The notes under the pieces: generated by a model
Database searches by the model: none
The model's input: only the letters and a program-made list of their open reading frames with translations
What the model was told of the DNA's origin: nothing
Origin: Dictyostelium discoideum
Lineage: Eukaryota
Assembly (NCBI GenBank): GCA_000004695.1
Contig: CM000154.2
Coordinates: 4,672,001-4,736,000, forward strand
DNA length: 64,000 nt
Direction of reading: 5' to 3'
Shown here: piece after piece, positions 20,361 to 50,491 of the stretch
Layout: each line of letters begins with the position of its first letter
Position numbering within the stretch: the stretch's first letter is position 1
Program-made: the position numbers and the translations under genes

Positions 20361-20685
20361 TTTTTAATTTTTTTTTTTTTTTTGTTTATTTTTAATTAAT
20401 AAAAGAAACAATTCATTCAAATAGAAAATTAACTCACAAAAAACCAATTATTTTCAAATTATTTTTAATTTTCATATTGATACCAATACAATTAAAATAA
20501 TTAAACAATATCAACAATCATTAATACTTTTAAATAATAATATCAATAATTTTAATAAATTAAAAGAATACAATAATCAATCCATTCATTATTATCAAAA
20601 AATAATTGGAGAAATTAAAAATAATTTTAAATTAATTTACACATTAAATAATAATAATAATAATAATAGTATAAATAATAATAAC

Positions 20686-20771
<86 letters not shown>

Positions 20772-20872
20772 TAATAATATTTATATTAATAGTAATAGAT
20801 ATGAAATAGAAATAGATGAAGATAATAATGAATTTTTTAAATGTAAGCTTAATTTATTTTTTTTATAGATGA

Positions 20873-21388
20873 TATTCACATTATTCTGACAGTGGAGGTC
20901 CAAATATAGATGGAATATCAAAATTTTATATTTACACAGATAAGGAATCCTTTGAATTTAATAATAAACGTTGTATAGCATTTAAAGAAGATTGTAGTAT
21001 TTTATCAAAATTAGAAAATAATCAAATACCATCGAGTGTAATGTTATTAGATGGATTCAATCAGAAATTAATACGAAATATATTACCAGAAGGTATTCTT
21101 TCATTGTATTTATGTGATATAAGACAAGAATTGATAATAGGTTCAATTCCTAATACTGTAGTGGGTGTCTATTTATTAGATGGATTCAATCAAAAAATAG
21201 AACCAGGTATATTACCAAATGGTATTAAATCATTGCACTTGTGTGATATAAAACAAGGATTAACCATTGGTTCAATTCCTGATGCTTTAGAGTATGTCTT
21301 TATAGAATATAGATTCAATCAAAAATTAGCACCTGATTTATTTCCAGAAACTATAAGATTTCAAAGACTCCAAAGATTTTTATATTAA
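20873..21388 (+). CDS. FNIP-repeat protein, tandem copy 3 (open frame; true 5' exon unresolved)
   Basis: Open frame 'HYSDSGGPNIDGISKFYIYTDKESFEFNNKRCIAFKEDCSILSKLENNQIPSSVMLLDGFNQKLIRNILPEGILSLYLCDIRQELIIGSIPNTVVGVYLLDGFNQKIEPGILPNGIKSLHLCDIKQGLTIGSIPDALEYVFIEYRFNQKLAPDLFPETIRF'. About 22-aa repeats with the FN[QI]xL/P and 'GSIPxxV' signature. Confidence 0.5.
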   Translation, partial: YSHYSDSGGPNIDGISKFYIYTDKESFEFNNKRCIAFKEDCSILSKLENNQIPSSVMLLDGFNQKLIRNILPEGILSLYLCDIRQELIIGSIPNTVVGVYLLDGFNQKIEPGILPNGIKSLHLCDIKQGLTIGSIPDALEYVFIEYRFNQKLAPDLFPETIRFQRLQRFLY

Positions 21389-21731
21389 TATAATTTCAAT
21401 TTCCTAATTATATATAACTTTCATTGGTTCATATATTCTAAAATAAATTAAAGAAAAATTAAAAGCATGAAATGAACATTATTCCTAATACTGTGTTTTA
21501 TTTAAATAATAGATATTAACATATATTAAAAAAACATATATTAAAAACCAGTGAAATAAATCATTTATTAAATCAAAAAATTATTAAAATTATTAAATAT
21601 TAATAAATACTAATTTTGCCACTTGAAAATAGAAACAAATTATATAGGAAGGAAAATAATAAAAATAAAATAATTTAAAATAAAAAAAATAAATTAGAAA
21701 TAATTTAAAAATAATTTAAAAATAATTTAAA

Positions 21732-21811
<80 letters not shown>

Positions 21812-21952
21812 TAATATTAATAATAATAATAATATTTTAATTAATAATAATATTTTAATAAATAATAATAAATATAAAATAGAAATGGATAAAGATAATA
21901 ATGAATTTTTTGAATGTAAGCTTTATTTATTGATTTATTTTTTCATAAATGA

Positions 21953-22603
21953 TATTTATATTATTCTGACAGTGAGGGCCTAAAAATAGATAATATTAAA
22001 AAGTTTTATATTTATACAGACAAGAAGCCTTTTAAATTTAATAAACTATGCATGGCATTTAAAGATGATTGTAATATTTTATCAAAATTAGAAAAAAATC
22101 AATTACCATCAGATGTAATGTTATTAGATGGATTCAATCAAAAATTCATACAAAATATATTACCTGAGGGTCTTGAATCATTGTATTTAGGTGATATAAA
22201 ACAAGAATTAGTTATTGGTTCAATTCTTTATACTGTAAAGAATGTCTATTTATTTGATGGATTCAATCAAAAATTAATACCTGCTGTATTACCAAAAGGT
22301 GTTAAATCATTGTTTATAGGTGATATTAAACAAAAATTAATTATTGGTTCAATTCCTAATACTGTAAGGAGTGTATATTTAGAAGATGGATTCAATCAAA
22401 AACTAGCACCTGCTATATTACCAGAAGGTGTTGAATCATTGGATTTAGGTGATATAAAACAAGAATTAATTAATGGTTCAATTCCTAAAACTGTAACCAA
22501 AGTAGTTGTTTCAAAAAAGTTTAAATACCAAATTAAACCCTATGTTTCTAATAAAGTTCAAACCACGGGAAAAATTAAAATTCACTGGGAGAAGTTTTAT
22601 TGA
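21953..22603 (+). CDS. FNIP-repeat protein, tandem copy 4 (most complete)
   Basis: '...KFYIYTDKKPFKFNKLCMAFKDDCNILSKLEKNQLPSDVMLLDGFNQKFIQNILPEGLESLYLGDIKQELVIGSILYTVKNVYLFDGFNQKLIPAVLPKGVKSLFIGDIKQKLIIGSIPNTVRSVYLEDGFNQKLAPAILPEGVESLDLGDIKQELINGSIPKTV...'. Five clean repeats. The conserved N-terminal box is shared with copies 1 and 3. Confidence 0.55.
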   Translation, partial: YLYYSDSEGLKIDNIKKFYIYTDKKPFKFNKLCMAFKDDCNILSKLEKNQLPSDVMLLDGFNQKFIQNILPEGLESLYLGDIKQELVIGSILYTVKNVYLFDGFNQKLIPAVLPKGVKSLFIGDIKQKLIIGSIPNTVRSVYLEDGFNQKLAPAILPEGVESLDLGDIKQELINGSIPKTVTKVVVSKKFKYQIKPYVSNKVQTTGKIKIHWEKFY

Positions 22604-24099: not shown

Positions 24100-24790
24100 T
24101 GATCATATCTTTTAATTTCAATTAAAAATGGTTTAAATTTAGTTTTACAGTTTTGCCAATTTGATCAGGTAAAACAGATGTTGCCGATTTTAGTGAATCA
24201 TGTGTGAATAAAGGCATTGCTTTGTTGTATGTTAATAAAAGTCCAAATGCTTGTAATTTGCCAAAATGATAAGAAAGACCCATTAAATAATCAAACATTT
24301 GTCCAATGACCTTTGGATCATAAAATGAATCTTCATTACATTTGACTTGAATAAAACCAATATAATTTGTTTTTGATTTTAATAACCAATGATCTGGTTG
24401 TAATCCAACAATATCTTCTTGAGAAACAATTGAAATTTCATGTTCAAAGCATCTATAATAATAGGATTTGTAAAATTATAAAGTTCATATTCATTACGAG
24501 CAGTGAAAGTATCAGAGTCTGTATAAAGAGACAACACACATGATTCTTTATCACCATTCTTTTCTAAAAGATCTTCAAAATTTTGTATTCCAACCAAAGT
24601 GCTAAGTTGTAATTAACATTAATCATGATTTGATGAAGATTGTGATGTTGATGTTATAATGTACTTTGGTATGCCATTATCAATAAGATGTCTGATGGAT
24701 CTTTCTTTTTCTTTTTTTTGAAGTTCTTTTACTTTTTCTAAAAGTTCTTCATATGCTTTTTTGTAATCTATATTATTATCACTCATTTTC
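24100..24790 (-). pseudogene. Truncated, frameshifted duplicate of the N-terminal domain of the 40501-41902 gene (lineage-specific family)
   Basis: Minus-strand translation 'MSDNNIDYKKAYEELLEKVKELQKKEKERSIRHLIDNGIPKYIITSTSQSSSNHD...STLVGIQNFEDLLEKNGDKESCVLSLYTDSDTFTARNEYELYNFTNPIIIDAL' is collinear with 40501-41336 (+). A 14-nt deletion (relative to 'attatgtggtcttg' at about 40990) shifts the frame. Homology stops at 'KTVK', so the kinase-like C-domain is absent. Confidence 0.5.
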
Positions 24791-25071: not shown

Positions 25072-26587
25072 TTATTTTTTAATAAACCAAAAACTTAAAC
25101 TGAGCGATGTTGATAAAGATCTAACATAATGAAAATAACCACTTGGCATGAAAAGAATATCACCAGGACCTAAAATACATTCTGTATAATGTTGATTTGC
25201 TATTTTTAATAATGGATATTTTTCAAAATCTGTATCTTCAAAATCAACAAAACTAATATTATTTTGAGCAGTTTTTGAATTTTTAACAAGATTATTGTCA
25301 TCACTATCACCCTGATCTTTCTTTAAATAAAGATTTGAAATTTGATTTTGTGGATAAAGACGAACATATTTATAACCAACGATTTGAGTTAAGAAATTGT
25401 CATAGCTGTCGAAATGTAATGGAGTTATTGTATTACCTGTGCCTAACCAAATATGGGGTGATATTCCCTCTTCTTCAGTTTCATGAACTTTTGCATCACC
25501 TGTAGTTTGTAAAAATAATGGGAATTTAAAATCATCCAATAGTGATGGTAACTGTTCGATTAAACCATGTTGTGCTAAATAAGCAACCTTTGATGATTCT
25601 GTAGCTGTACTATCATTATCTTTACTTGAAGGTATCATATATTCTTCAATGAAATCTTTTAATTTCATTAATTTCTCTGACCAATCAATTGAATTATCAT
25701 TATCATTATTTGCTGTAGTAGTAGTAGTTTGTTGTTGTTGTTGTTGTTTCTTTGTTTTTGAATCTAATTTATTATGACCTAATTCAATTGGTACAATTCT
25801 ATTACCATGATTTGAAAGAAAATAATTTAAGTCTTTCCATTTATTTATACATTCCCAATTATTTGCATCACCTTTAATTATACATGGTGTCATTGTGTTT
25901 AAATGTTGATTTTTAAATATTGAAAATTCATTTAAATAATCACCACCACTACCACTAGCGCCACCATTATTTTTACCACATTCAATTACTTTAATTTCAT
26001 GATTTTTATCTATAATTGGAAATTTTGAAAAATTAACATTTTCATCTAAAATCATTGGTATTGTAGGTGAAGTTGAAGTTGTTGTTGTAGTTTGCTTTTT
26101 TGATAATTCATCCATAATTGGTAATAATAATTCTTTTGGTGCACCCATTATAAAAGATTGATCACAGATTTCTAAAGTTTTAATTAAATCATTTTGAGTG
26201 TACCAATAGGTTATACCTGCTAATTGACCCATAATAAATGATTCTCTTAAACAAATATGTTCCCAACCACCTTGTTTCAATAATTTATTCCATGTTAATT
26301 TATAAATTGATTCATGGATATTCTTTAATTGATTAAATTGTTTTTTATTATACATAAAAAATAATTTCTTTAAATCAACTGATAATTGATTTGCATCTTC
26401 ATTACCCAATGACAATAAATCTTGACATGCTAAAAAAAAATAAAAAAAAAAGAATTAAAATTTAATTTTCATGTTTTTATTTTTTATTTTTTATTTTTTT
26501 TTATTTAAATAAATACAAACTTCTTGTATAACAATTCTTTATTAAATTAAAGATTGGTACTCTATACTCCTCTTTAAATGAATTCAT
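25072..26587 (-). CDS. JmjC-domain protein, JMJD5/KDM8-like 2-oxoglutarate/Fe(II) hydroxylase, 2 exons
   Basis: Exon 2 25072-26429 and a short exon 1 26521-26587 ('MNSFKEEYRVPIFNLIKNCYTR', donor GTTTGT, acceptor TTTAG). Cupin core 'HIWLGTGNTITPLHFDSYDNFLTQIVGYKYVRLYP...YTECILGPGDILFMPSGYFHYVRSLSTSLSLSFWF' aligns with human KDM8 '[34 protein letters not shown]...[33 protein letters not shown]'. Also 'NRIVPIELGH...DWSEKLMKLKDFIEEY' versus KDM8 '[27 protein letters not shown]'. Confidence 0.8.
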
Positions 26588-31365: not shown

Positions 31366-32162
31366 ATGTTAAAACTAACCAACAAACTTTTTTACACACA
31401 GATTATTACTGTAGGTAATTATGGCGTAGGGAAAAGCTCAATTTTAAAAAGGTTTCACCAAGTTGACCTTGATGATAATACCACTGGTTTTAAAACAAAA
31501 AAATTTATTATTGATAATCATCATGTTAGTGTTCAGGTATGTATTAGTATAGTACTATCAATATTATTCAATTTAATAAAAAAAAAAAAACAAATAATAA
31601 TAATAATAATAAAAATAATAATAACCAGACATGGGATACAAGTGGACAAGAACGTTTTTGTTCACTGTCTAGTTCATTTTATAGAAATTGTGATGGTGTA
31701 ATTTTATGTTTTAGTGTTGATAATGAAGATTCATTCAAAGCTTTAGATCTTTGGAGAGATGAATTAATAAAGTTTGGTTATTTCCCTGATAGAGTTCCTT
31801 TTATTTTAGTTGGAAATAAATTTGATTTAGAATTTAAGAAACATGTAATCAATAGTAAAATGGCTCAAGATTGGTGTAAATATCAAAAATTAAAATATCA
31901 AGTAGGTGTTAATAAAGAGTTACCCGATATAATATATCATGAAACTTCTATTGAAAAACTTGTATCAATTGATGAAGCATTTATCAACATCTGTAGACAA
32001 GCATTTGAAAATAAAATAAAAATTTCTCTCTCAAAATTAAATAATAATAATAATAATAACGAAGAAAATAATAATAATAATAATAACAATGAAAACAATA
32101 ATTATAATAATGTACCAATTTTTCAAATTGGACAGAAGATACGTTCTTGTTGTTACTATTGA
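31366..32162 (+). CDS. Rab-family small GTPase (divergent), 2 exons
   Basis: Exon 1 31366-31536 ('ITVGNYGVGKSSILKRF...HVSVQ', donor GTATGT), exon 2 31628-32162 ('TWDTSGQERFCSLSSSFYRNCDGVILCFSV...ILVGNKFDLE', C-terminal 'CCYY' = CCXX geranylgeranylation motif). A possible extra 5' micro-exon (MNPNKIIDLK at 31256) does not join in frame. Confidence 0.75.
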
Positions 32163-32548
32163 TAAAAAGAGAGAGAGGAAATAGAGTATTCATAATTTTA
32201 AAGGAATAGATCAAAAACAATCAATTGAATTTGCTTATGGGAATTAGAAATTGAAATTCATTGATTAAATAATTTATAGGTTAATTATTCTAATATAAAA
32301 ATGAAAACACTGACAATTTTCAATTCAATTTGAAGTTAAAAAGAAAATTGATTTACCAATAAATCAATGTTTAAAACTAAAATAATAATAATAATGATTA
32401 AAAAGGAGATTCTCAGGGATTTTAATTTAAAATTGTAAAAAAAATGATAAAACTAAATTTGTAAACAAATAAAAATAAACTATTTATAAAATTTTAAAAT
32501 GATGATATGGTGGTGTTTATTTTTATTTTACTCTTTTTTATTTATTCT

Positions 32549-32668
32549 TTAAGCTATATCTTCTTCTACATCAAAGTAATCATCATCATCATCATCTTCA
32601 TCATCATCATCTTCTTCTTCTTCTTCTTCCATTTCCACTTCTTCAACTTCTTCCTCTTCTTCATCATC

Positions 32669-32749
<81 letters not shown>

Positions 32750-34677
32750 TTCTTCATCATCTTCATCATCATTTAAAAAATCTAATTGATCGAAATCACC
32801 TTGTTCAAGTGCACCATCTTCATTAATTATTAAACCACTTAAATGAGATAATAATGGTGAGAAACTTTCACCATTATTAAATAATTGTTCATCAATTCTT
32901 TGATCTTGTTGTTCTTGAATTTGTTGTTCATTTTCAGAATCAAAATCAGTATCATCGAAAAGGGAAGCTTCATTGATGGTGGCATCATCGAATAATAATT
33001 TCATAAAATCTTTTTCAGACATTTTCAATTTTCTTGTGATTTTTCTAGATTCTAAAAATAATTGTAATTTATATTCAGCTTCAATAGTTTTATTTAAAGA
33101 TTGAAATTCTGATTTATCATCGGACCTATTAATACCTTCGCTTAAATTACTACTATTTGATGGTGGTAAATTGTTTTTATGATAAAATTGAAATAATTTA
33201 TCACCAAATTTATTCATTAAACTTTCCATAGTCACACGTTGAAGATAGGATAATATTTTAATTCCATTATTTGCATTGGTTACAAATGAACTACCACTAC
33301 CACCACCACCACCACCACTACCACCATATGCAGTAGAAGTAGTATTAGCAGATGATGATGATTGTGTATTATTCGATAAATGATCATCATCTTCAATATC
33401 TACGATTTGTGGTGACAAAATGTGAATGTCACTTGAATCAATTGAAGCTACAGCAATTCTAAAATCATTTAAACCACTAATTACTGAATTTCTATTACAA
33501 CTACTTTGATAATGATTATCATTGATATTATTTGCCACCGGTACTAAATGAACTGGAGATTTATGAGATACCACCCTTTTTAATACATTACCACTTTGAG
33601 TATCATAGATATAGACATGTCTATCCTCTGAGCCTGACACAATTTGACGATCGTTATTAATGAAAGAACAACCTACATTGTAGCCCATACATCTATGTTT
33701 TCTATACTCTTTGACAATACCAATGGAAGTGTTTGTTGTTATAACACGACCACTCTCTTTGTTTATCTCTACTTTACTTTCACCATCACCCAATCCTTTA
33801 ACTTTGGTGGCGGGTGAAGAAACCAATAATCTCGTATCCCAAAGTCTGATAGTATTATCACGACCACTCGATAGAATCTGACGGTCATCCATTGTCCAAT
33901 GGAGAACATTTAATTTGTTATGAGCTTGTACGCTGAAAATCGGAGTTTTGAAGCCCTCTCTAAGATCCCACATACGCATAGTACCATAACGTGCACCAGA
34001 TATGAAAACATTGTTATCGAAATGATGAAATTTCATACTGTTTATAGTATTTAAATTGCCAATACTGTCATCGGATGGATGAGCTTTATCTAATCTGAAA
34101 AAGATTTTACCATAATTCATATCCCATCCACAAATGGTCGACGATGCACAACCACTCAATAATATCGAATCATCCATTGTTAACTCCATTGATTTCAACC
34201 AATCATCATGTTCTTTAAGTGTTGTCACCAATTGAAAATTCTTATAAACTTTAATTGTATGATCTAATGAACATGTTAAAAATGAATTAAATGGTGATAT
34301 AATTGATCTCTTATAAGTTGCTTGTGATGTTTTTTGTTTTAAATATCCTTGTATTTCATTATTATTATTATTATTATTATAATTATAATTAAAACCATTA
34401 CTATTATTATTATTATTACTATTACTATTACTATTTATTGAAATTTTTTGTCTTTTATTCATTAATGACCCTATATCATCTTGATTATAATCTTCTCTAA
34501 AATTTCCATAATATTGTTCTTCATTTTCACCATACGCTTTATTAAACCAAATTGCCATTGATACAACTTGTTCATGATCTCTAATATTATATAATAATTC
34601 ACCTGAATTTGGTTCAAATATATCAACTGAATCATCTATTTAAAAATATGTTTCTTATTAATATATAGCTTTTAAAA

Positions 34678-34735
<58 letters not shown>

Positions 34736-35141
34736 TAAATAATGATTACAAACTTGTTGATAAAGCAATATATGAATTATCAGGTGACCATGAAACCCAA
34801 AATGGACATTTTGAAGGATCATACTGTATTATAGAATCTAATCCAATTTGTGATACTAATGTATCATTTAATTTTAAATATTCGCTATTTGTATTTGTAT
34901 TTCTATATGAATTTGTAGTTGTAGTTGTTGTATTTGTTGTTGTTGTATTTGTTGTTGTATTTGTAGTTGTTGAATTATTATTATTATTATTATTATTATT
35001 TACATATTCATTTAATAATTGTATCCTTTTATAGTGACCAAAATGATTTATATGAGCTAATCTAGGATTTGAACCATATAATTCTGATCTTAAAGTGTAT
35101 GCATTCAATAAGTAACTGATATCCTTATCTTTTTCATACAT
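32549..35141 (-). CDS. WD40-repeat protein with about 70-residue poly-Asp/Glu C-terminal tail, 2 exons
   Basis: Exon 1 34754-35141 ('...CPFWVSWSPDNSYIALST', donor GTTTGT) joins in phase to exon 2 32549-34635 (acceptor AAATAG). WD repeats 'HTIKVYKNFQLVTTLKEHDDW', 'GTMRMWDLREG', 'DNTIRLWDTR', 'SGSEDRHVYIYDTQSGN'. The tail is encoded by (GAT/GAA)n at 32560-32790. 825 codons, in frame. Confidence 0.75.
32560..32790 (-). repeat. (GAT/GAA)n trinucleotide tract coding about 70 Asp/Glu residues at the C-terminus of the WD40 protein
   Basis: Plus strand reads (TCA/TCT)n. ORF-track artefacts poly-I (32507-32776) and poly-M (32566-32772) are its other frames. Confidence 0.9.
34679..34732. repeat. (TA)27 dinucleotide microsatellite inside the WD40-gene intron
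   Basis: Direct reading: 'tatatatatatata...'. Confidence 0.95.
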
Positions 35142-35903
35142 TTTTATTTGTTTATATTTATATATATATATTTATACAATGTTTAATTTCTCGTGTGTGT
35201 GGTTTTCAATATGTACTATTTTTTTTTTTTTTTTTTTTTTATTATTTTATATTTTTTATTTTTATTATTTTTTATTATTTTTTATTTATTTTTTTATTTA
35301 TTTTAATTTTTGAAAAAATTTAGTTTTTTCTTTTTTTTTTTTACTTGGTATTTTTGTGTATACATATAAATTTATGAGGAGAAGGAGTGTGCGGATTAAT
35401 TTATTAATAAAAAGGATATTATTTTAAAAAAAATTTTAAAAAACCATCATTTTCTTCCATTTTTTTTTTTTTTTTTAATTTTTTTTTTTTTAATTTTTTT
35501 ATTTTTTAATTTTTAATTTTTTTCATTTTTTCGTTCGTTTAGTCAAAAATGGATTTTATAATTAATTTGGTTAAATAAAAAAATAAATAAAAAAAAAGTT
35601 AAAAATAAAAAATAAAAATAAATAGCAAAAAAACAAAACAAATTACAAAATAAAACAATCAAAACAAAAAAAAAAAACAAAACAAAAAAAAACAAAAATA
35701 TTTAATTATAAAAAAAAAAAAAAAAAAAAAAAATATAAAAAGTAATTTTATTATTTATTGAATATGATATAATTCAGAAAAAAAAAAAAAAAAGTTTAAT
35801 CTCATTTCTGTGATATACCAAATTATGTGAATTGATAAAAAAAGTATAAAATTAGAACACACACTAACACACATGTGAATTAATTATAAAAAACCACTTT
35901 CTG

Positions 35904-35934
<31 letters not shown>

Positions 35935-36085
35935 ATTAAAATACCAAAAAAAAAAAAAAAAAAAAAACCCCCCTATAAAAGCTTTAAAAATCCAAATGAA
36001 TTTTTTCCATTAATTAAAAATAAAATTTAAAAATTTTTAGAAAAATAACCCTTAAAAAATTAATTTAATTAATTGGCTTATTTAA

Positions 36086-36115
<30 letters not shown>

Positions 36116-36116
<1 letters not shown>

Positions 36117-36190
36117 TGATTAAAAAAATTTCAATTATTTTAATCACTCTATTTATTATCCAATTAACTAAATCAGTTTCAGTAAATAAA

Positions 36191-36259
<69 letters not shown>

Positions 36260-36770
36260 TATTTTATTGATCATTATAATTATGATTTAGATATTGATTT
36301 AACTTCTCAACAACAACAGCAATCATCATCATCATCATCTGATGCACCATTAGAACCACCATCATGTGGGGAATTATGTGTTTGTTTATATACAGAATTA
36401 AATTATCAAGGTCTTTCATATGAATATTCAATCTATTCAGGAAAAGTTGATTTACCACCCTCAATTAGAAATAATATTACTTCATTTGTGTCAAAGTATT
36501 TATTTTTATTTTATTTTTATTTTTTATTTATATATTATTTAATTTCATTGGTTTCCAACCAAATTCTATATTAATACTAATAAATTTATTTATTTATTTA
36601 TTTATTTATTTATTTGTAGTGCTGATGTATGTTTTATTACATATGACCCATATGTTACAATACAAATTTATACAGGTGAATTTTTATCAAATTTTGGAAT
36701 TGTTTTTGGTGATATTTTACAAACCTTAGCTCCTGGTTTATGTAAAGATTTACCACCAAATCAATTTTAA
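36116..36770 (+). CDS. Small secreted protein with N-terminal signal peptide, poly-Asn tract and Cys/Tyr-rich domain; 2 exons
   Basis: 'MIKKISIILITLFIIQLTKSVSV' (signal peptide), '...PPSCGELCVCLYTELNYQGLSYEYSIYSGKVDLPPSIRNNITSFVS' (donor GTATTT at 36496), exon 2 36620-36770 'ADVCFITYDPYVTIQIYTGEFLSNFGIVFGDILQTLAPGLCKDLPPNQF*'. An orphan 50-bp fragment of exon 1 occurs at 43845-43895. Confidence 0.5.
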
Positions 36771-36999
36771 TCCTAACAATTGGTTATAACCAATCGTGTG
36801 TTTTGTAAATAAAATAAAAAATAAAAAAAAATAAAAAATATAAAAAAAATAGTGGATGGTATAAGTTAGAAAATAAATAAAATAAAATAAATAAAAAAAT
36901 AAGACCATTCCCAACAATTATATGTTTTCTATTTTTTTTTTTTTTCAGATTTTTTTTTTTTTTCTTTCTTTTTGTAAAAAAAAAAAAAAAAATTACGGA

Positions 37000-37800
37000 T
37001 ATGAATTCATTTAAAGAGTACCAATCTTTAATTTAATAAAGAATTGTTGTACAAGAAGTTAGTGTTATTAATAAAAAATTAAAAAATTAAAAATTAAAAT
37101 TTAATTAATTCTTTTTTTTTTTATTTTTTTTTTTTTATTTTTTTTTTTCAGCATGTCAAGATTTATCATTAGGTAATGAAGATGCAAATCAATTATCAGT
37201 TGATTTAAAGAAATTATTTTTATAAGAAAATCATTTATTATGGGTCAATTAGCAGGTATAACCTATTGGTACACTCAAAATGATTTAATTAAAACTTTAG
37301 AAATCTTTTATAATGGGTGCACCAAAAGAATTATTATTACCAATTATGGATGAATTATCAAAAAAGCAAACTACAACAACAACTACAACTTCACCTTCAA
37401 CTTCACCTACAATACCAATGATTTTAGATGAAAATGTTAATTTTTTAAAATTTCCAATTATAGATAAAAATCATGAAATTAAAGTAATTGAATGTGGTAA
37501 AAATAATGGTGGTGGTGGTGGTGGTAGTGGTGGTGATTATTTAAATGAAATTTCAATATTTAAAAATCAAAATTTAAAAACAATGACACCATGTATAATT
37601 AAAGGTGATACAAATAATTCGGAATGTATAAATAAATGGAAAGACTTAAATTATTTTCTTTCAAATCATGGTAATAGAATTGTACCAATTGAATTAGGTC
37701 ATAATAAATTAGATTCAAAAACAAAGAAACAACAAAAACAACAACAAACTACTACTACTACATCAAATAATGATGATGATGATAATTCAATATTTTTTTT
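37000..37800 (+). pseudogene. Partial, internally deleted duplicate of the JMJD5-like gene (inverted copy of 25590-26590)
   Basis: 37000-37080 is the reverse complement of 26509-26590 (exon 1 'MNSFKE..', with a 10-nt deletion). 37147-37800 encodes 'ACQDLSLGNEDANQLSVDLKKLF' then stops, then 'IMGAPKELLLPIMDELSKKQTTTT...HNKLDSKTKKQQ'. That is collinear with 26415-25660 but lacks about 200 nt in between and the whole catalytic JmjC half. Confidence 0.6.
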
Positions 37801-38715
37801 TTAAAAAAAAAAAAAGATCAATTGAGAGTTTTTGTGAGAATTTTTTTTTTAGGCTAGATTTATATAAAAAAGGAAATATTATTATTTTTTTTCCTATGAA
37901 ATAATCTACAAGACTAAAATTCTTTTTTTGGTTTTTCCACAAACGTGTTTTCTTATTTTGATTTCTTTTTTTTTGTTTGATTTGTGTTTGCATTTTTTAT
38001 TATGAATAAACTATTAACTAAATCAAATACTCCTATAAAATATATTAATAAACCATAAAGTTTCCATAATAAATTATTAATATTTTTATTTTTTATTATT
38101 TTTTATAATACCAAAGAAAATGGAATCACTATTGTTTGTATTTAATGAATCAATTGTTACATCAGTTCAAATATAATTTTTTTTTTTTCTTTTTTTTAAA
38201 TCACTTTTAATTTTATAAAATTTTGGTTTATTATTTTTATTATTATTTTTTTATTTTTTTTCAAATCACTTTTTTTATGGGTGTGAGTTCCAATAAACCA
38301 CATGTTGAATTTACAAACACACTCAAACACACATGAACACACATTTAAAAAAATAAGTTTTTCTTATTTTTTAACAACTCCACCATACCCCAAATTTATT
38401 TTTGGTTTATTCTATCTCAATTTAAGAATTATTTATGGTTTATTAAAATTAAAATTAGAATTAAAAAAATTATTAATTATTTATTTTTAAATTTTTTTTT
38501 TTTTTCCAAAAATTTCCCTTTTTTTTTTTTTTTTTTTTTTTATTCTCTTTATTATTATTTTATTTATATTAATTTCTATATATTCTTTATTTTAATTTCT
38601 TTTTATTATTATCTTTTATTATTTATTTTTATAATTATTATTTTTTATTTTTTATAATTAATATTTTTTTTTTTTTTTTTATTATTATTTTTACAAATAA
38701 ATAATTTTTGAAAAA

Positions 38716-40193
38716 ATGTCAATTGATATAAAATTTACAATTAATGATATTTTATTTAATCAAGAATCATTACAAAAGAAAAATAAATATACATGTCCAA
38801 TTTGTTTTGAATTTATTTATAAAAAACAAATTTATCAATGTAAATCAGGTCATCATGCATGTAAAGAATGTTGGGAGAAATCATTAGAAACAAAAAAAGA
38901 ATGTATGACTTGTAAATCAGTAGTGAATTCATATAATGATTTATCAAGATGTTTGATGGTAGAGCGTGCATTTGATAAAAAAGAATGTTGTTGTATTTAC
39001 TCATTCACCGAACAAATAGTTCAAGGTGGAACAAATTGTTCACCACCAGATGGTGCCTCAGACCAAAATCAAAGAAAATTAATAAAAGATGAAGAAAATG
39101 GTTGTAAAGAAAAAATTGAAGTTGATCAAATTGATTCTCATTTAATCAATTGTCAATATAAATTTGTTACATGTTCATTCAAAGGATGTGAAAAGATTTT
39201 AAGAATGAATTCATTAGAATCTCATCAAAATGAATGTGGTTTCAAATTGGTTATATGTGATTTCTGTAAAAGGGATGATATTAAAAAGAAGGAATTAGAA
39301 ACTCATTATAAGACATGTCCAATGGTTCCAATTGATTGCTCACAAGGTTGTTCAGTGAAAATTGAAAGGAAATCAATTATCGATCATATTGAAAATGATT
39401 GTTGTAATACTCAAATACCATGTAAATATTTTGAACAAGGTTGTAAAGTTGAGATGAAGAGATCAGAATTACAAAATCATTTGGAGAGAGTGAATCATCA
39501 AACTTACATGGGCATTCTAATTGATAAATTAACAAATCAAGTTGGCCACTCAAAGAAAACTCATGATGAACTTTTGAAAAAGATTGAAGATTTGTCATTA
39601 TTAATTATCAAATTCAGTGATGCATGTTTAAAGAAACAAGTTCTTCCAAAGGCTTTGGATATTTGTTCAAATGGGTATAGAAATAAATGGATCATTTCTA
39701 ACTATTCAAGTTTAGCAAAATCAAAATTAAATTGTAAATCATTGTCCTCTCCAATACTGTTAATACTCTCTCACCATTTTCAAGTTTGTGTTTATCCTAA
39801 AGGTGATGAAAATAAAGAATACATTTCATTATATTTAAGAGTTAATAATATTGAAGAACCAAACTCATTAAAAGTAGAATATTCATTTACATTAGTCAAT
39901 GTTTTGGATAAATCAAAATCAATTACAAAAAGAGTAGATAAAATAGGTAATTTATACAAAAATTATTATTATTATTATTATTATTATTATTTTAATTTTT
40001 AATTAATTATTATTATTATTATTATTATTTTTTTATTTTAGTTTTTATAAGTCCAAAAGAATGGGGATGGGGAAAATTCTTATTATCTGATTTAATTAAT
40101 AAAGAGAATGGTTGGTTAAGTAATGATGATAAATTAACAATAGAAATTTATATTAAAATTTTAAATGAAGAATATGAACCATTGGAGTCTTAA
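38716..40193 (+). CDS. TRAF-like protein: RING finger + TRAF-type zinc fingers + C-terminal MATH domain, 2 exons
   Basis: RING '[41 protein letters not shown]'. TRAF zinc fingers (repeated 'C..GC....R..L..H...C'). MATH domain '[36 protein letters not shown]...ISLYLRV', donor GTAATT at 39947, exon 2 40042-40193 '[41 protein letters not shown]'. Confidence 0.8.
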
Positions 40194-40500
40194 ATCTTAA
40201 AAAACTGTAAACCATAAATTGATAAAATCATGTATTTCCCTATTTTTACAACTTAAAAAAAAAATATAAATAAATAAAAAAATCTTTCCAAATTATTTAA
40301 TGTTCAACTAGTTTTCAATTATTTTCTTAATAATCCTTAAACATTTTTTTTTTTTTTTTAATATGAAAAATAAAATATGCAAAAAAAAAAAATAAATAAA
40401 AAATATCCCGCCAATATTTTTTTTTTTATTTTATTTTTTTTGTTAAATAAAAAAAAAAAAAAAAAATGGTTATATACAAATTAAACACACCAAATAGAAA

Positions 40501-41902
40501 ATGAGGGGTAATAATTTAGATTACAAAAAAGCATATGAAGAACTTTTAGAAAAAGAAAAAGAACATCAAAAAGTTCTTTTAACTTTTAGAAAAACAAAAA
40601 GCATATGAAGAACTTTTAAAAAAAGAACATCAAGAAAAAGAAAAAGCATATGAAGAACTTTTAGATAAAGAAAAAGAACTTCAAGAAAAAGAAAAAGAAA
40701 ATCAAAAAAAAAGAAAAAGAAAGATCCATCAGACATCTTATTGATAATGGCATACCAAAGTGCATTATAACATCAACATCACAATCTTCGTCAAACCATG
40801 ATTCATGTCAATTACAACCTAGCACTTGGGTTGGGATACCAAATTTTGAAGATCTTTTAGAAAAGAATGGTGATAAAGAATCAAGTGTGTTGTCTCTTTA
40901 TAGAAACTCTGATACTTTCACTGCTCGTAATGAATATGAACTATATAATTTTACAAATCCTATTATTAGAGATGCTTTGAAATTATGTGGTCTTGAACAT
41001 GAAATTTCAATTGTTTCTCAAGAAGATATTGTTGGATTACAACCAGATCATTGGTTATTAAAATCAAAAACTAATTATATTGGTTTAATTCAAGTCGAAT
41101 GTAATGAAGATTCATTTCATGAACCAAAGGTCATTGGACAAATGTTTGATTATTTAATGGATCTTTCTTATCGTTTTGGCAAATTACAAGCATTTGGACT
41201 TTTATTAACATACAACAAAGCAATGACTGTATCCACACATGATTCACTAAAATCGGCAGCTGCTAATATTCAAACATCTGCTTTACCTGATCAAATTAGC
41301 AAAACTGTAAAAAATTATTATATGAAATTTATTTAGTCAAGTATTTAGGTGGTGGAGGCGATGGACATTGCTCTTATGCATTAGCAGAAGAGGGTCATAG
41401 TTTGGTTATAAAATCTTTCAATAACACAATTAAAAAAAGAAAAGAGATGAAGAAAGAAGATTATGGCACACCATTTGGGGAATTGAAACTCATAAAAACA
41501 TATGCAGCTAAAGATCATTTGGTAATGCCATTCATAAAACCAATTGGAAATGATGATTATAATAGTACAGATTTTATGGATTTAATATCTACTGCAGCAG
41601 ATACTTTCTCAAGTAAAGGTTATGAACATATGGATTTACACATTAGACATATTTGTAAATACAAAAAAAATGAAAAATGTGAATATATATTTATTGATTT
41701 ATCAAGAGTATCAAAAGTCACAGATAAAGATCAAGCAAAACAAAGAATGATTAATTGTATTTTAAAAGATTTAGAAAAAATCAGATATAATCATAGTTTA
41801 ACCGATAACGAACAACCAAACTCTTCCATTGCCCATGCAAATCTTGAACGATTTTCCAATCCTTTTACCATTCCTTTAACTCCAAATGATAAGTCCAAGT
41901 AA
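40501..41902 (+). pseudogene. Lineage-specific gene: N-terminal domain + atypical protein-kinase-like C-terminal domain; frame is broken at least twice (pseudogene or sequence errors)
   Basis: The N-terminus carries a local tandem triplication of 'KAYEELLEKEKE' with a frameshift. The middle domain 'NFEDLLEKNGDKESSVLSLYRNSDTFTARNEYELYNFTNPIIRDAL...HWLLKSKTNYIGLIQVECNEDSFHEPKVIGQMFDYLMDLSYRFGKLQAFGLLLTYNKAM' ends at a stop at 41336. A +1 frame continues 'VKYLGGGGDGHCSYALAEEGHSLVIKSF...GYEHMDLHIRHICKY...YIFIDLSRV' (Gly-loop / VAIK-like / HxD / DFG-like order) to 41902. No canonical intron bridges the break. Confidence 0.45.
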
Positions 41903-42180
41903 TTTATTTAATAAATAATTAATATAAAATTGTAAATAAACGTTATTAAATTGGGTTATAGCAGTGTTGGTAAATCCAATAATAAACATCAACATTAAAA
42001 AATATCGGTAATGATGATTCATTTATTGGTGCTGCTTTAATTTCATTTAATACTTTAATGAATTTAAATAAATAAAATAATAAAAAGATGGAATATTCCA
42101 ATTTGTGTAAAAAAAAAAGGTGTGTGTTTATTTAAATAAAAACTATTTCAAATAAAATTGATAATATTTTTCTTTAAAGT

Positions 42181-43143
42181 TTAGAGGATATCAGCTGGAC
42201 TAACTAAATTTTCTTTTTTATCGAAATACTATTATTTTTTTAAAAAGTATATAATAAAATATATTAATTTTAGTATTTTTATTTTTTATTTATTTATTTA
42301 TTTATTTATTAAATAATAATACACTTACTTTTGAATCATCATTATCCCAATAAATTACAAGAGTTTTACCATCTAATTTTGATTGGATATCTTTGTAAAT
42401 TCTAATTTCATCAACAGTTGAATATACTCCAAGAGCACCTAATTATTATTATTATTATTGTTGTTGTTGGTGTTTACATTAAATTATTAGTTTTATTTGA
42501 AAAAATTAAAAATTAAAAATTAAAAAATTAAAATTTTACCTGGTTTCATTAAATTAAGTGAAATATATTCAACATCTTTTGGGAAATCAATTCTGGTTGA
42601 ATCATATTTTAAATGCATATTTTTTTTACATGGTTTACCAGTACTATCACCAGCTTTGATTTCTTTGTAATCACTGCTTTTTGGGTCCAAGTAAATTCTA
42701 ACTGCTTTATTCCATCCAGTCTTTTCGTTAACAAGGATTCTATTATTATTATAATTTTAATAATATAAAAAAAAAAAAAAAAAAAAAAATGAAATAATTA
42801 ATTAAATATTATAAACAAAAACATTTTTAATTATTGTGGGTTTTTTTTTTATTTTTTATTATAATATCTTACAATCTAAAACCACCCTTTGGTCTTTTAT
42901 CATTGAATCTTAAATATTTAACTTCTAATTTATCGGCCTCTATAATGGGTAAAAATAAATAAATAAATAAATAAATAAGTTTTAAAATAAAAATAAAAAT
43001 AATATTATAAAAAAGAGAGAAATACCTTTGTCTGGTAAAAAACCTTTGATTTTATCAATAGCTGTTGAACCAATTGCAACAATACCACCAACAGCACCAA
43101 TTGCAGCTGCGACAGTTGTTAAAGTTAATGTAATGACTACCAT
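42181..43143 (-). CDS. Small single-pass (signal-anchor) membrane protein, tandem copy 1, 5 exons
   Basis: Exon translations 'MVVITLTLTTVAAAIGAVGGIVAIGSTAIDKIKGFLPDK' | 'EADKLEVKYLRFNDKRPKGGFRL' | 'LILVNEKTGWNKAVRIYLDPKSSDYKEIKAGDSTGKPCKKNMHLKYDSTRIDFPKDVEYISLNLMKPG' | 'GALGVYSTVDEIRIYKDIQSKLDGKTLVIYWDNDDSK' | 'YFDKKENLVSPADIL*'. Introns bounded by GTATTT/GTAAGA/GTAAAA/GTAAGT ...AG, phases consistent. Confidence 0.6.
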
Positions 43144-43785
43144 TTTTTTTTTTTTTTAATGATAAATTTGATTAAATAAATGAATATTTGATTTAAAAAA
43201 CAGTTATTTTAATAAAGTTTAAGTTAATTTTGATTAATTTTTTTTTTTTTTTTTTTTTTTTGACATTTTATAGTAAATTTTTTTTATTAGACTTAGATAT
43301 TATTATGCTGAGCATTTTTTTATTTTTATTTTTATTATTGGAAAATTGTTTAAAAAATAGTAAAAGCTTTGGTGATTGGTTATTTTGTAAAAAATCTTTA
43401 AATCTAAAGTTTTTTTTGAACTTGTGCGTGGTGTGAAAGTAATTTTTTTTTGTTTTTTTTTTTAAATTAAAAAAAAAAAAAAAAATGACACTTGCCAAAG
43501 ATCCAATCATCACTAAAAGATTTTTTAATTTGTAAAATTAAAAAAAAAAAAAATTATGTTGCGATTAAAATCTTTTTTTTTATTAAATTATTATATTTCA
43601 TTTATTTTAATTTTTATTTTTATTTTTTTTTAATTTTTTATAATAATTTTTTTTTTTTTTTTTTCTCTTAAGAATTTAAAAATTACGGAATCATATTATT
43701 GGATTACCAAAAGGTAAAAAAAAAAAAAAAAAAAAAAAAAGGAAATTTACGGAGTGTCTTTTTTATCATTTAAAAAAAAAAAATT

Positions 43786-43821
<36 letters not shown>

Positions 43822-44369
43822 TTTTAATAGTTGTGTAAAAAAAGAAATCATTTACCATCCTCAATTAGAAATAATATTACTTAATGTGTTAAAAATAATT
43901 TTTAAGATGTTGGAAATGGTTTTAATTTTTTTTTTTATTTTTTTTTATTTTATTTTATTTTATTTTATTTTTAATTTATTTTTTTTTACAACAGAGCCTC
44001 TTAAAATTAAGATATTAGTTTTGGGTAAATCATCAATAATTAATGTTTTTCTTACCAGATTGCGGTAATATAATTAATAATAAATTTATGAAAAATAAAA
44101 ACAAATGGCTGAGGAATGGTGTAAAAATCAATTCAACTCTATAATAATACTCATATACAATATATTGAAACTTCAACATTTAATAATTAATCATTTATTA
44201 GTGCTGCTTCAATTTCATTTAATATTAATCAATTTAAATATATAATTAAATAAATCATTGTAATATTAAAAAAATAAAAAGATGGAATATTCTTATTTAT
44301 GTAAAAAAATAATAAAAAAAAAGTGTGTGTGTTTATTTAAAATAAAATTATTTCAAATAAAATGATATT

Positions 44370-44480
44370 TTAGAGGATGTCAGCTGGACTAACTAAATTT
44401 TCTAGTCTATCGAAATACTATTATTTTATTAAAAAATAAAAAAAATTTATTATAGTATTTATTTATTTTAAAAAAAGTAA

Positions 44481-44575
<95 letters not shown>

Positions 44576-45001
44576 ACTTACTTTTGAATCATTATTATCC
44601 CAATAAATTACAAGAGTTTTACCATCTAATTTTGATTGAAGATCTTTGTTAACTCTAATTTCATTAACAGTTGAATACACTCCAAAAGCACCTATTTATT
44701 ATTTATATTATTATTATTATTGTTACATTTAAATTTTATTAGTTTTATTTTATTTTATTTTATTTGAAAATTTTTAAAAAAAAACATACCTGGTTTCATT
44801 AAATTAAGAGTAAAGTATTCAACATCTTTTGGGAAATCAATTCTAGTTGAATCGTATTTTAAATGTGTGTTTTTTTTACATTGTTTACCAGTACTATCAC
44901 CAGCTTTGATTTCTCTGTAATCACTGCCACCTGGTTTCATGTAAATTCTAACTGCTTTATTCCATCCAGTCTTTTCATTAACAAGGATTCTATTGGGTGT
45001 G

Positions 45002-45088
<87 letters not shown>

Positions 45089-45497
45089 TTTATATAAAAA
45101 AAAAAAAAAAAATTAATAATTAATTGTTAGTGTTTTTTTTTTTTTTTTTTTATATTTTTTCAGAAATTATTTTATCTTACAATCTAAAACCACCTTTTGG
45201 TCTTTTATCATTGAATCTTAAATATTTTATTTCTGATTTATCAGCATCTATAATGAAAAAATAAAAATTAAAAAATAAAAAATAAAAAATAAAAAATAAA
45301 AATGATTATAAGTTTTAAAATAAAAATAAAAATTAAAAATGGAAATTGGAATAATAAAAAAAAAAAAAGAGAAAAATACCTTTATCTGGTATAAAACCTT
45401 TGATTGTGTCAACAGCTGTTGAACCGATCATAGCAATACCACCAGCAATACAAATTGCAGCCCCGACAGTTGTTAAAACTAATGTAACGACTACCAT
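44370..45497 (-). CDS. Small single-pass membrane protein, tandem copy 2 (paralog of 42181-43143)
   Basis: Same five-exon structure: 'MVVVTLVLTTVGAAICIAGGIAMIGSTAVDTIKGFIPDK' | 'DADKSEIKYLRFNDKRPKGGFRL' | '...ILVNEKTGWNKAVRIYMKPGGSDYREIKAGDSTGKQCKKNTHLKYDSTRIDFPKDVEYFTLNLMKPG' | 'GAFGVYSTVNEIRVNKDLQSKLDGKTLVIYWDNNDSK' | 'YFDRLENLVSPADIL*'. The fourth intron is expanded by an (AAT)n tract (44488-44572). Confidence 0.6.
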
Positions 45498-45995
45498 TTT
45501 TTTTTTTATTGATAAATTATTTGATTTAAAAAAATAGTTATTACACTAAGTTAAAGTTTATTTTGAATTTTAAAAATGATTTATTTTTTTTTATTTTTTT
45601 TTTTGACATTTTATAGTAATTTTTTTTGTTGGATTTACATATTATTGGAAAAATGTTAAAAAAATAGTAAAAGTTTTGATGATTGGTTATTTTGTAAAAA
45701 ATCTTTAAATATAAAGTTTTTTTTGAATTTGTTAACAAAAGACTTTTGTGTCATGAACAAATTCAAAAAAATCGCAAAAAAAATTTTATTTTTCATTTAA
45801 AAAAAAAAAAGGTAAAAATTTTATATGGCCATTAAAATCTTTTTTTTTAACAGGCGAAACAGGGCCGGCTTAATTATTATATTTTATTTAATTTATTTTT
45901 TATTTTTCTCATAAAAATTTAAAAAATTATGAAATCTGTATAAAAAATCGAATTATTTGTTTACCAAAAGGTTTCTTATCATACGAAAAAAAATA

Positions 45996-46044
<49 letters not shown>

Positions 46045-46493
46045 TTAATAACACCTATTTTTATATTATTTATTTAATATTAAAATAGGTGTTATTTGAT
46101 TATCTAATATTCTATTAATTTTTTTTATTTCCATAAATAAATTTTAATTTTTTTTTTGTTTTTTTTTTTTCTTTAAACTTGGTAGAAATGATTTTACAAA
46201 TAAAATGTCATAGCGAAATTTTAAAACTATAAATAGTTTTAACCCCTTTTCGAATTAATTTTTACTCTTTTAAAATCTTAAAAAAAAAATAAAAAAAAAA
46301 TTAATATATTTCCCCCTTTTGGTAATAAAATTACTAAAAATGAGTTTTACTTTTTTTTTTTTTTTTTTTTTTTTATAAATTAAATTTTTTTTTTTTATAT
46401 ATCTAGAAAATTAAAAAAAATTTATTTAAATTTATATTTATATAAAATAATAAAATTATTTATTTGTTGGAATAACAAATAAAATAATAAAAA

Positions 46494-48165
46494 ATGAAGT
46501 ATAATATAATATTATTATTTATAATATTTTTATTAAGTTTTATGAATTTTGGTGTAAATGCAAATTCATATGATTTTACAGATTTTCCAAATGCATCAAT
46601 TGTTATCACTTGGAATAATTTATTATTAAATGCAATTCATAAAGCAAGTCCACCTCCAACAGTAGTTTCAAGAAGTCTTTCAATGGTTCATACAGCAATA
46701 TATGATTCATGGGCATACTATACAAATTCTAAAGGTGTTTATTTAATTGGTGAATCAAATTGTTCAACAATACCAAAAAATAAAAATGATAATGATATTA
46801 AAAAATCAATTTCATTTGCAGCATATAGAACTTTAGTTGATTTATATCCACTATCAATGTAAATAAATAATATTATTTATTAAAAATAATTATAATAATA
46901 ATAACATATAATAAAAAAAATAGGTATTAATACTATTTATTTTGAAAATAAGTGATAATTATAATGAAAAAATGAAAAATTTAGGATATGATATAAATGA
47001 TATTAATTTAAATTTAGATAATTCAGTTGGTATTGGAAATAAAGCATCAAAATTATTATTAGAGAATAGATGGTTGGATGGATCAAATCAAAAGGCAATT
47101 TATGGTGGTAAAAATTATAGTGATTGGACTAATTATGCACCAAGAAATGATGCTCAACCATCTAAATTAAGAAAACCTGATAATTGGCAACCGTTATCTG
47201 TACCTGTTAAAAACTCAACTTTATTTACAATACAATCATTTTCAACACCACAATGGGGTAGTGTGAAACCATTTTCATTATTATCAGGCTCACAATTGAG
47301 ACCAACAATACCACCACCTTACTATTCATTCAATGATCAAAATAATAATAAAACAATTGAGAAATTAAAGAATTCAGCATGGGAGTTAATTGGATATACT
47401 CAAAATATGACAGATGAAATTAAAGCGATTGCAGAGTATTTTGGTGATGGTCCAAATTCAGTATTGCCACCAGGTCATTGGAATTTATTTGCACAATTTG
47501 TATCAAAACGTGATAATCATTCAATTGAACAAGATGTTAAATTATACTTTATGTTAAATAATGCTCAATTAGATTCAGGAATCGCATGTTGGGATTGTAA
47601 AAGATTCTTTGATAATGCTAGACCTGTTACAATGATTCCAGTTCTATTTAAAGGTGTTAAAATAACTGGTTGGAATGGTATTTGTAAAGAAAATGTTGAA
47701 TTTGATTTATCTAATTGGATACCATATCAAGATCCATATGTTATTACTCCACCATTTTCAGATTAGTAAGTAGTAATAAATTAATTAATTTTAATTTATT
47801 TCATTTAATTTATTTTAATTTATTTTATTAATTTATTTATTTTTAGTACAAGTGGACATAGTACATTTTCATCATCAGCAGCAGAAATTTTAAAAAGGTT
47901 TACCGGTAGTGATAAATTTGGTAATTCGGTTACAATTAAAGCTGGATCATCAATTTTTGAAACCAACTGTTCATTTCCAGTACCAAAAACTGATATTAAC
48001 TTATATTGGGAAACATTTACAGATGCTGCACAACAAGCATGCATTTCAAGACGTTATGGAGGTATACATTATGATTTTTCAGATTATGAAGCAAGAAAAA
48101 TGGGTAGGAAAATTGGTGAAATGGTTTGGGATAAATCTCAATCGTTATTTAATAATATAGATTGA
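46494..48165 (+). CDS. Secreted vanadium-haloperoxidase / PAP2 (acid phosphatase) superfamily protein, 3 exons
   Basis: Signal peptide 'MKYNIILLFIIFLLSFMNFGVNA'. The N-terminal region 'ITWNNLLLNAIHKASPPPTVVSRSLSMVHTAIYDSWAYY' resembles bacterial/fungal vanadium haloperoxidase-like proteins. The three PAP2/haloperoxidase active-site motifs are in order: 'CKRFFDNARP' (K-x6-RP), 'PPFSDYTSGHSTFS' (PSGH), 'ISRRYGGIHYDFSD' (SR-x5-H-x3-D-like). Exons 46494-46858 (donor GTAAAT), 46953-47765 (donor GTAAGT), 47847-48165; phases consistent. Confidence 0.7.
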
Positions 48166-48397
48166 AAAATAATAAAAAAAAAAAAAAAAAAATTCCTTAA
48201 AAATATTTTTTTTACAAACACTAACTTCAATTGTTTAAATTTCTGAAATACAGTTTTTTTTTTTTTTTCAATTTTTTTTTTTTTTTTATATTATCAAAAA
48301 AAAGAAATCATTGAAAAAATTTTTTGTTTATAAAAAAAAAAAAAAAAAATTTTTATTTTATTTTATTTGCTCATTCCCACCACTATTAAACACACAA

Positions 48398-50491
<2,094 letters not shown>

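Follow-up and report, generated by a model that had tools for sequence, protein, structure and literature searches.

The annotated Dictyostelium discoideum gene DDB_G0290897 is very probably a decayed member of the DUF5898 family of predicted nuclease-kinase proteins

The window analysed here is a 64,000-nucleotide stretch of Dictyostelium discoideum DNA (GenBank assembly GCA_000004695.1, contig CM000154.2, positions 4,672,001 to 4,736,000 of the forward strand) with a G+C content of ~20%, and all positions below are those of the window. Its plus strand carries at 40501-41902 the annotated gene DDB_G0290897, and the translated locus matches two D. discoideum proteins, DDB_G0290897 of strain AX4 (389 amino acids, aa) and ACTFIT_001732 of another strain (424 aa). 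We conclude with high confidence that this locus is a unitary pseudogene, orthologous to an intact nuclease-kinase (DUF5898) gene of 573 aa but decayed, and that the ancestral protein can no longer be encoded from it. An initial annotation, made from the sequence alone, had already named a dead gene copy as one of two alternatives, and this one agrees with the five frame-changing lesions that separate the locus from its intact syntenic ortholog and that splicing cannot repair. The locus itself is an ordinary pseudogene that has been mis-annotated, while the uncharacterised nuclease-kinase family to which it belonged is the interesting part. A literature search with the gene id DDB_G0290897 returned no match.

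The intact relative is ACTFIR_002682 (P0003), a protein of 573 aa encoded by one uninterrupted single-exon open reading frame (ORF) at L002:6001-7722. The locus L002, from ACTFIR, is colinear with window positions 31702-49203 at 88-96% identity and has matching neighbours on both flanks, so that the search for an intact frame among relatives, proposed in the initial annotation, ends at a syntenic ortholog reading straight through the breaks. The third syntenic lineage, ACTFIW, carries its ortholog at L003:10001-11690 (ACTFIW_009042), which has one frameshift directly after SIRHLIDNGIPKC (IPKC), is otherwise open, and is bridged at the frameshift by the deposited model. One locus is therefore seen in three states: intact in ACTFIR, lightly broken in ACTFIW and heavily broken in the window lineage. 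Both ACTFIR and ACTFIW are labelled "D. discoideum", yet they show only 84-97% identity to window 27711-53291 with many indels, as against 99.7% for ACTFIT; they look like deeply diverged lineages or cryptic species and not like ordinary strains. The parts of the locus are as follows.

40501-41902, plus strand: pseudogene body, DDB_G0290897 / ACTFIT_001732 (tblastn and MAFFT against the intact syntenic ortholog L002:6001-7722)
40501-40726, plus strand: N-terminal coiled-coil repeat region with three exact 21-nucleotide (nt) cores; the frame changes from A to B between 40573 and 40597
40703-40709, plus strand: 7-nt excess in an A-rich run, second frame change, from B to C (MAFFT against the ortholog coding sequence; three-frame translation)
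40727-41307, plus strand: N-domain remnant, predicted PD-(D/E)xK restriction-endonuclease-like fold; PD motif at 41043-41048
41307-41308, plus strand: junction of a 256-nt out-of-frame deletion (256 mod 3 = 1) relative to the intact ortholog
41308-41899, plus strand: C-domain, minimal protein-kinase-like (Pfam DUF5898); G-loop GGGGDG at 41348-41365
41433-41490, plus strand: compensating frameshift pair, -1 at 41433/41434 and -2 at 41489/41490; ~18 codons rewritten and the frame restored

The lesions were catalogued from a MAFFT alignment of the window copy with the L002 coding sequence, and three-frame translation divides the locus into four frame segments: A at 40501-40608, B to ~40745, C at ~40700-41336 and B again at 41339-41902. 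The 21-nt core AAAGCATATGAAGAACTTTTA (KAYEELL), for which shuffled sequences give 0 expected matches, occurs exactly three times in the coiled-coil region (40528, 40598 and 40643) and once, at 24739-24759, in a second copy of the gene in the left arm of an inverted duplication described below. The cores are spaced 70 nt (copies 1-2) and 45 nt (copies 2-3) apart, and as 70 is not a multiple of 3 the frame shifts between the first two. Only one KAYEE unit is found in the left copy and in the orthologs. The tandem triplication of a KAYEELLEKEKE unit that shifts the N-terminal frame, proposed initially, is real. Relative to L002, the repeat region has indels of -6, -14, -18, -6 and +7 nt, amounting to two net frame changes (40573-40597 and the A-run 40703-40709); in-frame deletions of 3, 18 and 3 nt are also found.

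In the N-domain, the E-x-K motif has degenerated to Q-V-E (41091-41099), followed by the QxxxY helix at 41139-41153. The window copy thus reads P-D...Q-V-E where the ortholog has PD...EVK, and the catalytic D...(D/E)-x-K arrangement is gone; the change of E to Q is common to the left copy and ACTFIW, while that of K to E is private to the right copy. The break between the two domains, noticed earlier, can now be identified as the 256-nt deletion at 41307/41308, which costs the gene its conserved middle segment (linker), residues 289-374 of the ortholog, along with the near-invariant R and K found there, and results in the premature stop at 41334-41336. In the C-domain, GGGGDG, the beta3 VIK (41405-41413), the catalytic loop HMDLHIRH (41627-41650) and the IDL of the DFG-equivalent IDLSR (41693-41707) are kept, but the full catalytic set is absent, as the alpha-C Glu segment is out of frame. 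This ancestral helix, RDEERRLWHTIWGIET, with its near-invariant Glu, was moved into another frame by the -1/-2 pair, and the ancestral version of the ~18 rewritten codons, KRDEERRLWHTIWGIET, is still readable there and matches the ACTFIR protein and a Polysphondylium homologue. Of the two frame breaks in the initial annotation both are present, but the true count is five, the A-run change at 40703-40709 and the pair at 41433 (-1) and 41489 (-2) having gone unnoticed.

It might be argued that the annotation is right, that the gene is spliced and functional with a product of 389 or 424 aa, and that the breaks are genuine introns. Both models are deposited in public databases, have GT...AG boundaries and can be rebuilt exactly from the window, with exons 40501-40572, 40665-41306 and 41342-41902 for ACTFIT_001732 and 40501-40572, 40665-41306 and 41447-41902 for the AX4 model DDB_G0290897. 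Despite these boundaries, the three annotated "introns" do not resemble spliceosomal introns. Their lengths are 92 nt (77% AT), 35 nt (86% AT) and 140 nt (71% AT), a composition close to the ~70% AT of coding sequence here and unlike the 93-97% AT of two bona fide introns nearby, and 35 nt is below the usual size of a Dictyostelium intron. All three align to coding sequence of the L002 ortholog, which is colinear across every one of them, and the AX4 and ACTFIT annotations differ on the second. Moreover, splicing out the first puts exon 2 into the wrong frame for the coiled-coil repeat, so that it gives IKKKNFKKKKKK where LDKEKELQEKEKE is expected, the AX4 model with its 140-nt second intron loses the Gly-loop and the beta3 Lys, and both models are without the conserved middle segment and the alpha-C helix. 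Genuine introns, which the initial annotation had named as evidence that would refute its reading, do not resolve the breaks, across which the ortholog is a single ORF. On the colinear single-exon ortholog, composition and length, this reading is rejected as highly improbable, and the 389-aa and 424-aa protein models are artefacts that cross the lesions via invented introns.

About equally improbable is that the decayed full-length gene still yields a shortened active product, such as a kinase-domain fragment begun at a start codon within the gene, or a regulatory RNA. The C-domain frame is open for 187 codons (41339-41902), with the -1/-2 pair restoring it; a putative truncated product would be a 166-aa ORF at 41402-41902 starting inside the kinase N-lobe; and the ratio of nonsynonymous to synonymous changes on the window branch (8 synonymous, 19 nonsynonymous) is somewhat below that of the ACTFIR branch. 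Yet no in-frame ATG precedes the Gly-loop, and the first candidate starts, TTG at 41402 and ATG at 41447, come after the Gly-loop or after the beta3 Lys. Furthermore, the alpha-C Glu lost from the window copy is kept in 144/147 family members (conservation counts here and below are for 147 diverse representatives), and an open frame of such length is unremarkable in recently dead, stop-poor coding sequence. Least credible of all are sequencing or assembly errors in homopolymer-rich DNA that would hide an intact gene, a possibility raised in the initial annotation and consistent with the A-runs at two of the lesions (40703-40709 and 41433). Strain ACTFIT, assembled independently (L001, GCA_054883475.1), is 99.73% identical to window 30489-51923 with 33 gapped positions and so differs by 0.27% over 21 kilobases (kb), yet it has 0 differences over 40401-42000. 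Homopolymer artefacts do not explain the 256-nt deletion, the loss of 2 nt at 41489 or the active-site substitutions, and the left copy bears independent stop codons; errors of this kind are accordingly rejected.

The family of the pseudogene is evident from its C-domain, which matches the Pfam model DUF5898 (PF19250) with 122.3 bits against a cut-off of 28.9 (E 1.1e-35) over model positions 1-109 of 109. DUF5898 is listed among the families of the Pfam protein-kinase (PKinase) clan (PMC9758233). The Kdo/WaaP kinase model PF06293 gives a weak match (22.3 bits versus 21.3 for the isolated C-domain, 20.4 in a longer construct) restricted to positions 127-192 of the 207 in the model, where the catalytic and Mg-binding loops lie, and is read as generic kinase-clan similarity and not as membership. 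As the AlphaFold model of the intact ortholog also shows a bilobal kinase fold, the kinase-like motif order described at first sight is real. The earlier impression that both domains were unrecognisable and the family perhaps undescribed stands in part: the C-domain was already in Pfam and the locus annotated, while the N-domain is absent from the sequence libraries searched.

Searches with the N-domain against Pfam, NCBIfam, PADLOC and PDB sequence profiles gave nothing meaningful and no link to any nuclease family; a match to myoglobin (E 0.02) and one to an alpha-solenoid (E 0.11) are noise. Its fold is predicted from structural models to be that of a PD-(D/E)xK nuclease of the restriction-endonuclease-like type, with the core alpha-beta-beta-beta-alpha-beta arrangement, a conserved P-D at the start of beta2, E-x-K in beta3 and then a G-Q-x-F-D-Y helix. 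A D at beta2, E-x-K in beta3 and QxxxY is the motif order of RecB/Cas4-type nucleases, and NucC, Dna2 and the nuclease-fold mitoribosomal proteins mL37 and mS30 are listed with the predicted-fold assignment. The paralogs P0009 (DDB_G0282857), P0171 (DDB_G0282827), P0023, P0005 and P0008 have Gln or Leu in place of the E-x-K Glu while all their kinase residues are kept, and in the AX4 model of DDB_G0282857 the nuclease domain lacks its PD half. Even in otherwise intact genes, the nuclease may be degenerating across the D. discoideum-group clade.

As modelled, the intact protein consists of an N-terminal coiled coil, a putative PD-(D/E)xK-like domain, a conserved linker and a minimal (~170 aa) kinase-like domain. 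It has the nuclease residues E...D...E-x-K...QxxxY and, for the kinase, the Gly-loop, beta3 Lys, alpha-C Glu, HxD loop and DFG-type Asp. It could tentatively be viewed as a metal-dependent enzyme that cuts nucleic acids and is coupled to an ATP-binding or phosphotransfer module. Here, the kinase-like module would regulate the nuclease or act alongside it, and the coiled coil would provide oligomerisation.

Although the initial annotation called the family lineage-specific, in an exhaustive HMMER profile search 1,607 representative clusters reach E<=1e-3 and 241 of them E<=1e-30, and among the 150 matches listed most cover both domains in one stretch. Named members come from the dictyostelids Tieghemostelium, Polysphondylium, D. 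dimigraforme and D. citrinum, from the chytrid Lobulomyces angularis and from Capsaspora owczarzaki; the taxonomic spread rests on these few named cluster members, the rest being metagenome or transcriptome sequences. The word-indexed searches, with 14-17 relatives, had given the false impression of a dictyostelid-only family, which the exhaustive search corrected. In viral contigs and in bacterial or archaeal genomes, no relatives were confirmed by searches of limited sensitivity owing to the patterns used. For DUF5898, PF19250 and the two AX4 gene ids, the literature searched yielded the Pfam clan listing alone and no paper discussing the family. Among the representatives, the D...E-x-K nuclease motif is present in 119/147, and the single positions are conserved as follows.

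Nuclease D: 131/147
Nuclease E: 129/147
Nuclease K: 137/147
Helix Q: 130/147
Helix Y: 130/147
Kinase beta3 K: 114/147, with another 26 showing a one-position shift
Kinase alpha-C E: 144/147
Catalytic D: 142/147
Catalytic-loop H/N: 143/147
DFG-type D: 135/147
Linker K (K241 of the trimmed ortholog): 135/147; R213 is also near-invariant
Both catalytic sets: 106/147

Pairwise against ACTFIR, the ratio of nonsynonymous to synonymous substitution rates (dN/dS) is 1.0 for the N-domain and 1.16 for the C-domain, and three-way parsimony assigns 4 synonymous and 24 nonsynonymous changes to ACTFIR, 8 and 19 to the window copy and 13 and 24 to ACTFIW, all of them small counts. The gene is evolving fast in all three lineages, and at these counts relaxed constraint and diversifying selection are inseparable. 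As all branches are fast, dN/dS proved uninformative as a discriminator of the dead copy.

Besides the candidate 166-aa product, several points weigh against the interpretation as a decayed nuclease-kinase gene. The "intact" reference allele comes from a lineage that is 8-12% diverged in the flanks, so that orthology rests on synteny, and the high dN/dS on all three branches does not single out the window copy as the only unconstrained one. The fold assignments derive from AlphaFold models built from 9-12 sequences with a mean pLDDT (predicted local distance difference test) of 73-77, the N-domain has no sequence-level link to any nuclease family, and the biochemical role of the intact protein is inference alone.

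The pseudogene forms part of an inverted duplication, which was noticed in the initial annotation and is recovered by blastn as two arm pairs: 36920-37791 pairs with 26660-25688 at 82-93% identity, and 40446-41312 with 24846-24143 at 90-95%. Its features outside the pseudogene are the following.

24123-24786, minus strand: second (left-arm) nuclease/kinase copy, with an in-frame single-unit N-terminus MSDNNIDYKKAYEELLEKVKELQKKEKERSIRHL, then lesions
25072-26587, minus strand: intact JmjC/cupin gene of the left arm, 474 aa (exon 1 26587-26521, exon 2 26429-25072)
36920-37804, plus strand: truncated JmjC/cupin (JMJD5-like) pseudo-copy (blastn to 26660-25688; a weak Cupin_8 match alone)
37792-40445, plus strand: lineage-only 2.65-kb block carrying a TRAF-like gene, replacing 841 nt of the ancestral arm
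38716-40195, plus strand: intact TRAF-like gene, 460 aa (exon 1 38716-39946, exon 2 40042-40195)

The left nuclease/kinase copy has two stop codons (~24621-24613), a 16-nt deletion (~24447) and a 33-nt deletion, and it ends a few codons into the middle segment, without a C-domain. Both copies in the window are therefore dead, as had been suspected, the right one through its five frame-changing lesions and the left one through stop codons and truncation. In the N-domain, unique sites number 23 in ACTFIR, 11 in the right copy and 13 in the left copy, a pattern that makes the two window copies each other's closest relatives; judged from these site patterns, their closeness would fit a duplication younger than the ACTFIR split or, equally, inter-arm gene conversion.

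The left-arm JmjC gene matches Pfam Cupin_8 (E 1.7e-48) and JmjC_2 (E 1.5e-9). Its counterpart at 36920-37804, rightly called a JMJD5 pseudo-copy before, is a truncated copy of this intact 474-aa gene (26587-25072, minus strand), with small deletions, a ~100-nt internal deletion with a stop, and the catalytic C-terminal half missing. The ACTFIT annotation calls the JmjC fragment 37313-37804 (plus strand; L001:6816-7307), a pseudogene fragment, a separate protein-coding gene of 163 aa. Directly upstream of the JmjC pseudo-copy, at 36116-36790 (plus strand), lies an ORF of two exons whose start resembles a signal peptide and which also has a poly-Asn tract and a segment rich in Cys, MIKKISIILITLFIIQ; the ACTFIT annotation carries this gene (191 aa) on into the pseudo-copy.

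The 2.65-kb block 37792-40445 has no counterpart in the left arm or at the syntenic sites of L002 (ACTFIR) and L003 (ACTFIW). Since it is missing from two syntenic lineages and the left arm, it is most simply explained as an insertion in the window lineage, in line with the inserted TRAF gene of the initial annotation. The gene it carries matches Pfam zf-TRAF (E 1.6e-24), with MATH and RING in addition, has in the splice reconstruction an intron at 39947-40041 of ~97% AT, and is matched by a 460-aa TRAF-like gene call in the L001 annotation. A scan of the window for transfer RNA genes, as retroelement targets near the insertion, found none.

Taken together, an ancestral segment with the JmjC gene and the nuclease/kinase gene was very probably duplicated in inverted orientation, after which the arms decayed in a complementary manner. 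In the left arm the JmjC gene survived, while the nuclease/kinase copy gained stop codons and is missing all that followed the N-domain. In the right arm the catalytic half of JmjC was lost and the 2.65-kb block with the TRAF-like gene was gained, and the nuclease/kinase copy there accumulated the five frame-changing lesions, including the 256-nt internal deletion, and lost catalytic residues.

Directly downstream of the pseudogene, the window lineage has two copies of a ~2.2-kb segment with a minus-strand gene of ~180 aa (41955-45732; 42312-42744 matches 44565-44994 at 87%) and ACTFIR (L002:8151-10084) and ACTFIW one each, making its doubling a second lineage-specific rearrangement. Further away, a repeat unit of 128-129 nt (43 codons) recurs in several arrays at 18877-22555, with 63-85% identity (repeat families D16-D19), and these probably reflect a gene for a repeat-domain protein unrelated to the pseudogene finding.

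For curation, pseudogene status applies to the reference "protein-coding gene" DDB_G0290897, to its neighbour with the 163-aa JmjC fragment and to the left-arm copy. Filed under DUF5898, the deposited proteins combine wrong-frame with truncated sequence into chimeras and contaminate the protein databases. For the family, DUF5898 proteins appear as a conserved fusion of a predicted restriction-endonuclease fold with a minimal kinase, most members having both catalytic sets, and not as a mere orphan kinase-like domain, which offers a concrete, testable biochemical hypothesis for a DUF; the intact, one-frameshift and dead Dictyostelium alleles are a natural set for genetics. It could be speculated, as a long shot, that the intact relatives form across eukaryotes a family in which an active PD-(D/E)xK nuclease is fused to an active minimal kinase, and which serves as an ATP-gated nuclease in genome conflict or defence. 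If so, this chromosome-5 locus would be a dead/alive polymorphism among Dictyostelium lineages that are closely related, intact in ACTFIR, with one frameshift in ACTFIW and heavily decayed in AX4-type strains, and its rapid turnover, hypervariable coiled-coil repeats, high dN/dS and repeated loss of the catalytic Glu would speak of an arms race and not of plain decay.

Among known systems, the closest is DUF5898 itself: its whole 109-position model is matched by the C-domain and carried by all intact relatives, and the window copy is a decayed member with a frameshifted alpha-C helix. The Pfam model spans the kinase N-lobe to the catalytic loop alone, however, and is silent on the N-terminal nuclease-like domain and the linker. 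The short C-domain of ~170 aa, without an extended substrate-binding C-lobe, is reminiscent of RIO1/RIO2, OspG/NleH1 and the Kdo/WaaP kinases. Yet it has no significant sequence similarity to them, is fused to a nuclease-like domain and, unlike these minimal kinases, has His for the Mg-binding Asn of the catalytic loop in 135/147 family members; as the ordinary eukaryotic protein kinases TBK1, CDC7 and CK1 score equal or better, no specific kinase subfamily can be assigned. The N-domain resembles the nuclease domains of type IIG, IIL and type I restriction enzymes (BpuSI, 3s1s; DrdV, 7lo5; HsdR, 3h1t) and of Cas4/RecB in topology, placement of D/E-x-K and the QxxxY helix. In contrast to those nucleases, to which a sequence relationship is undetectable, the nuclease-kinase family is eukaryotic, is fused to a kinase-like domain, and was found with no methyltransferase, helicase or Fe-S module. 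Finally, Ire1 and RNase L offer an analogy, although they share no homology with the nuclease-kinase family beyond the generic kinase fold. They too follow a design in which a kinase or pseudokinase domain is fused to a nuclease domain, but in reversed order: their nuclease is a C-terminal KEN RNase, while the predicted PD-(D/E)xK domain of the nuclease-kinase family is N-terminal.

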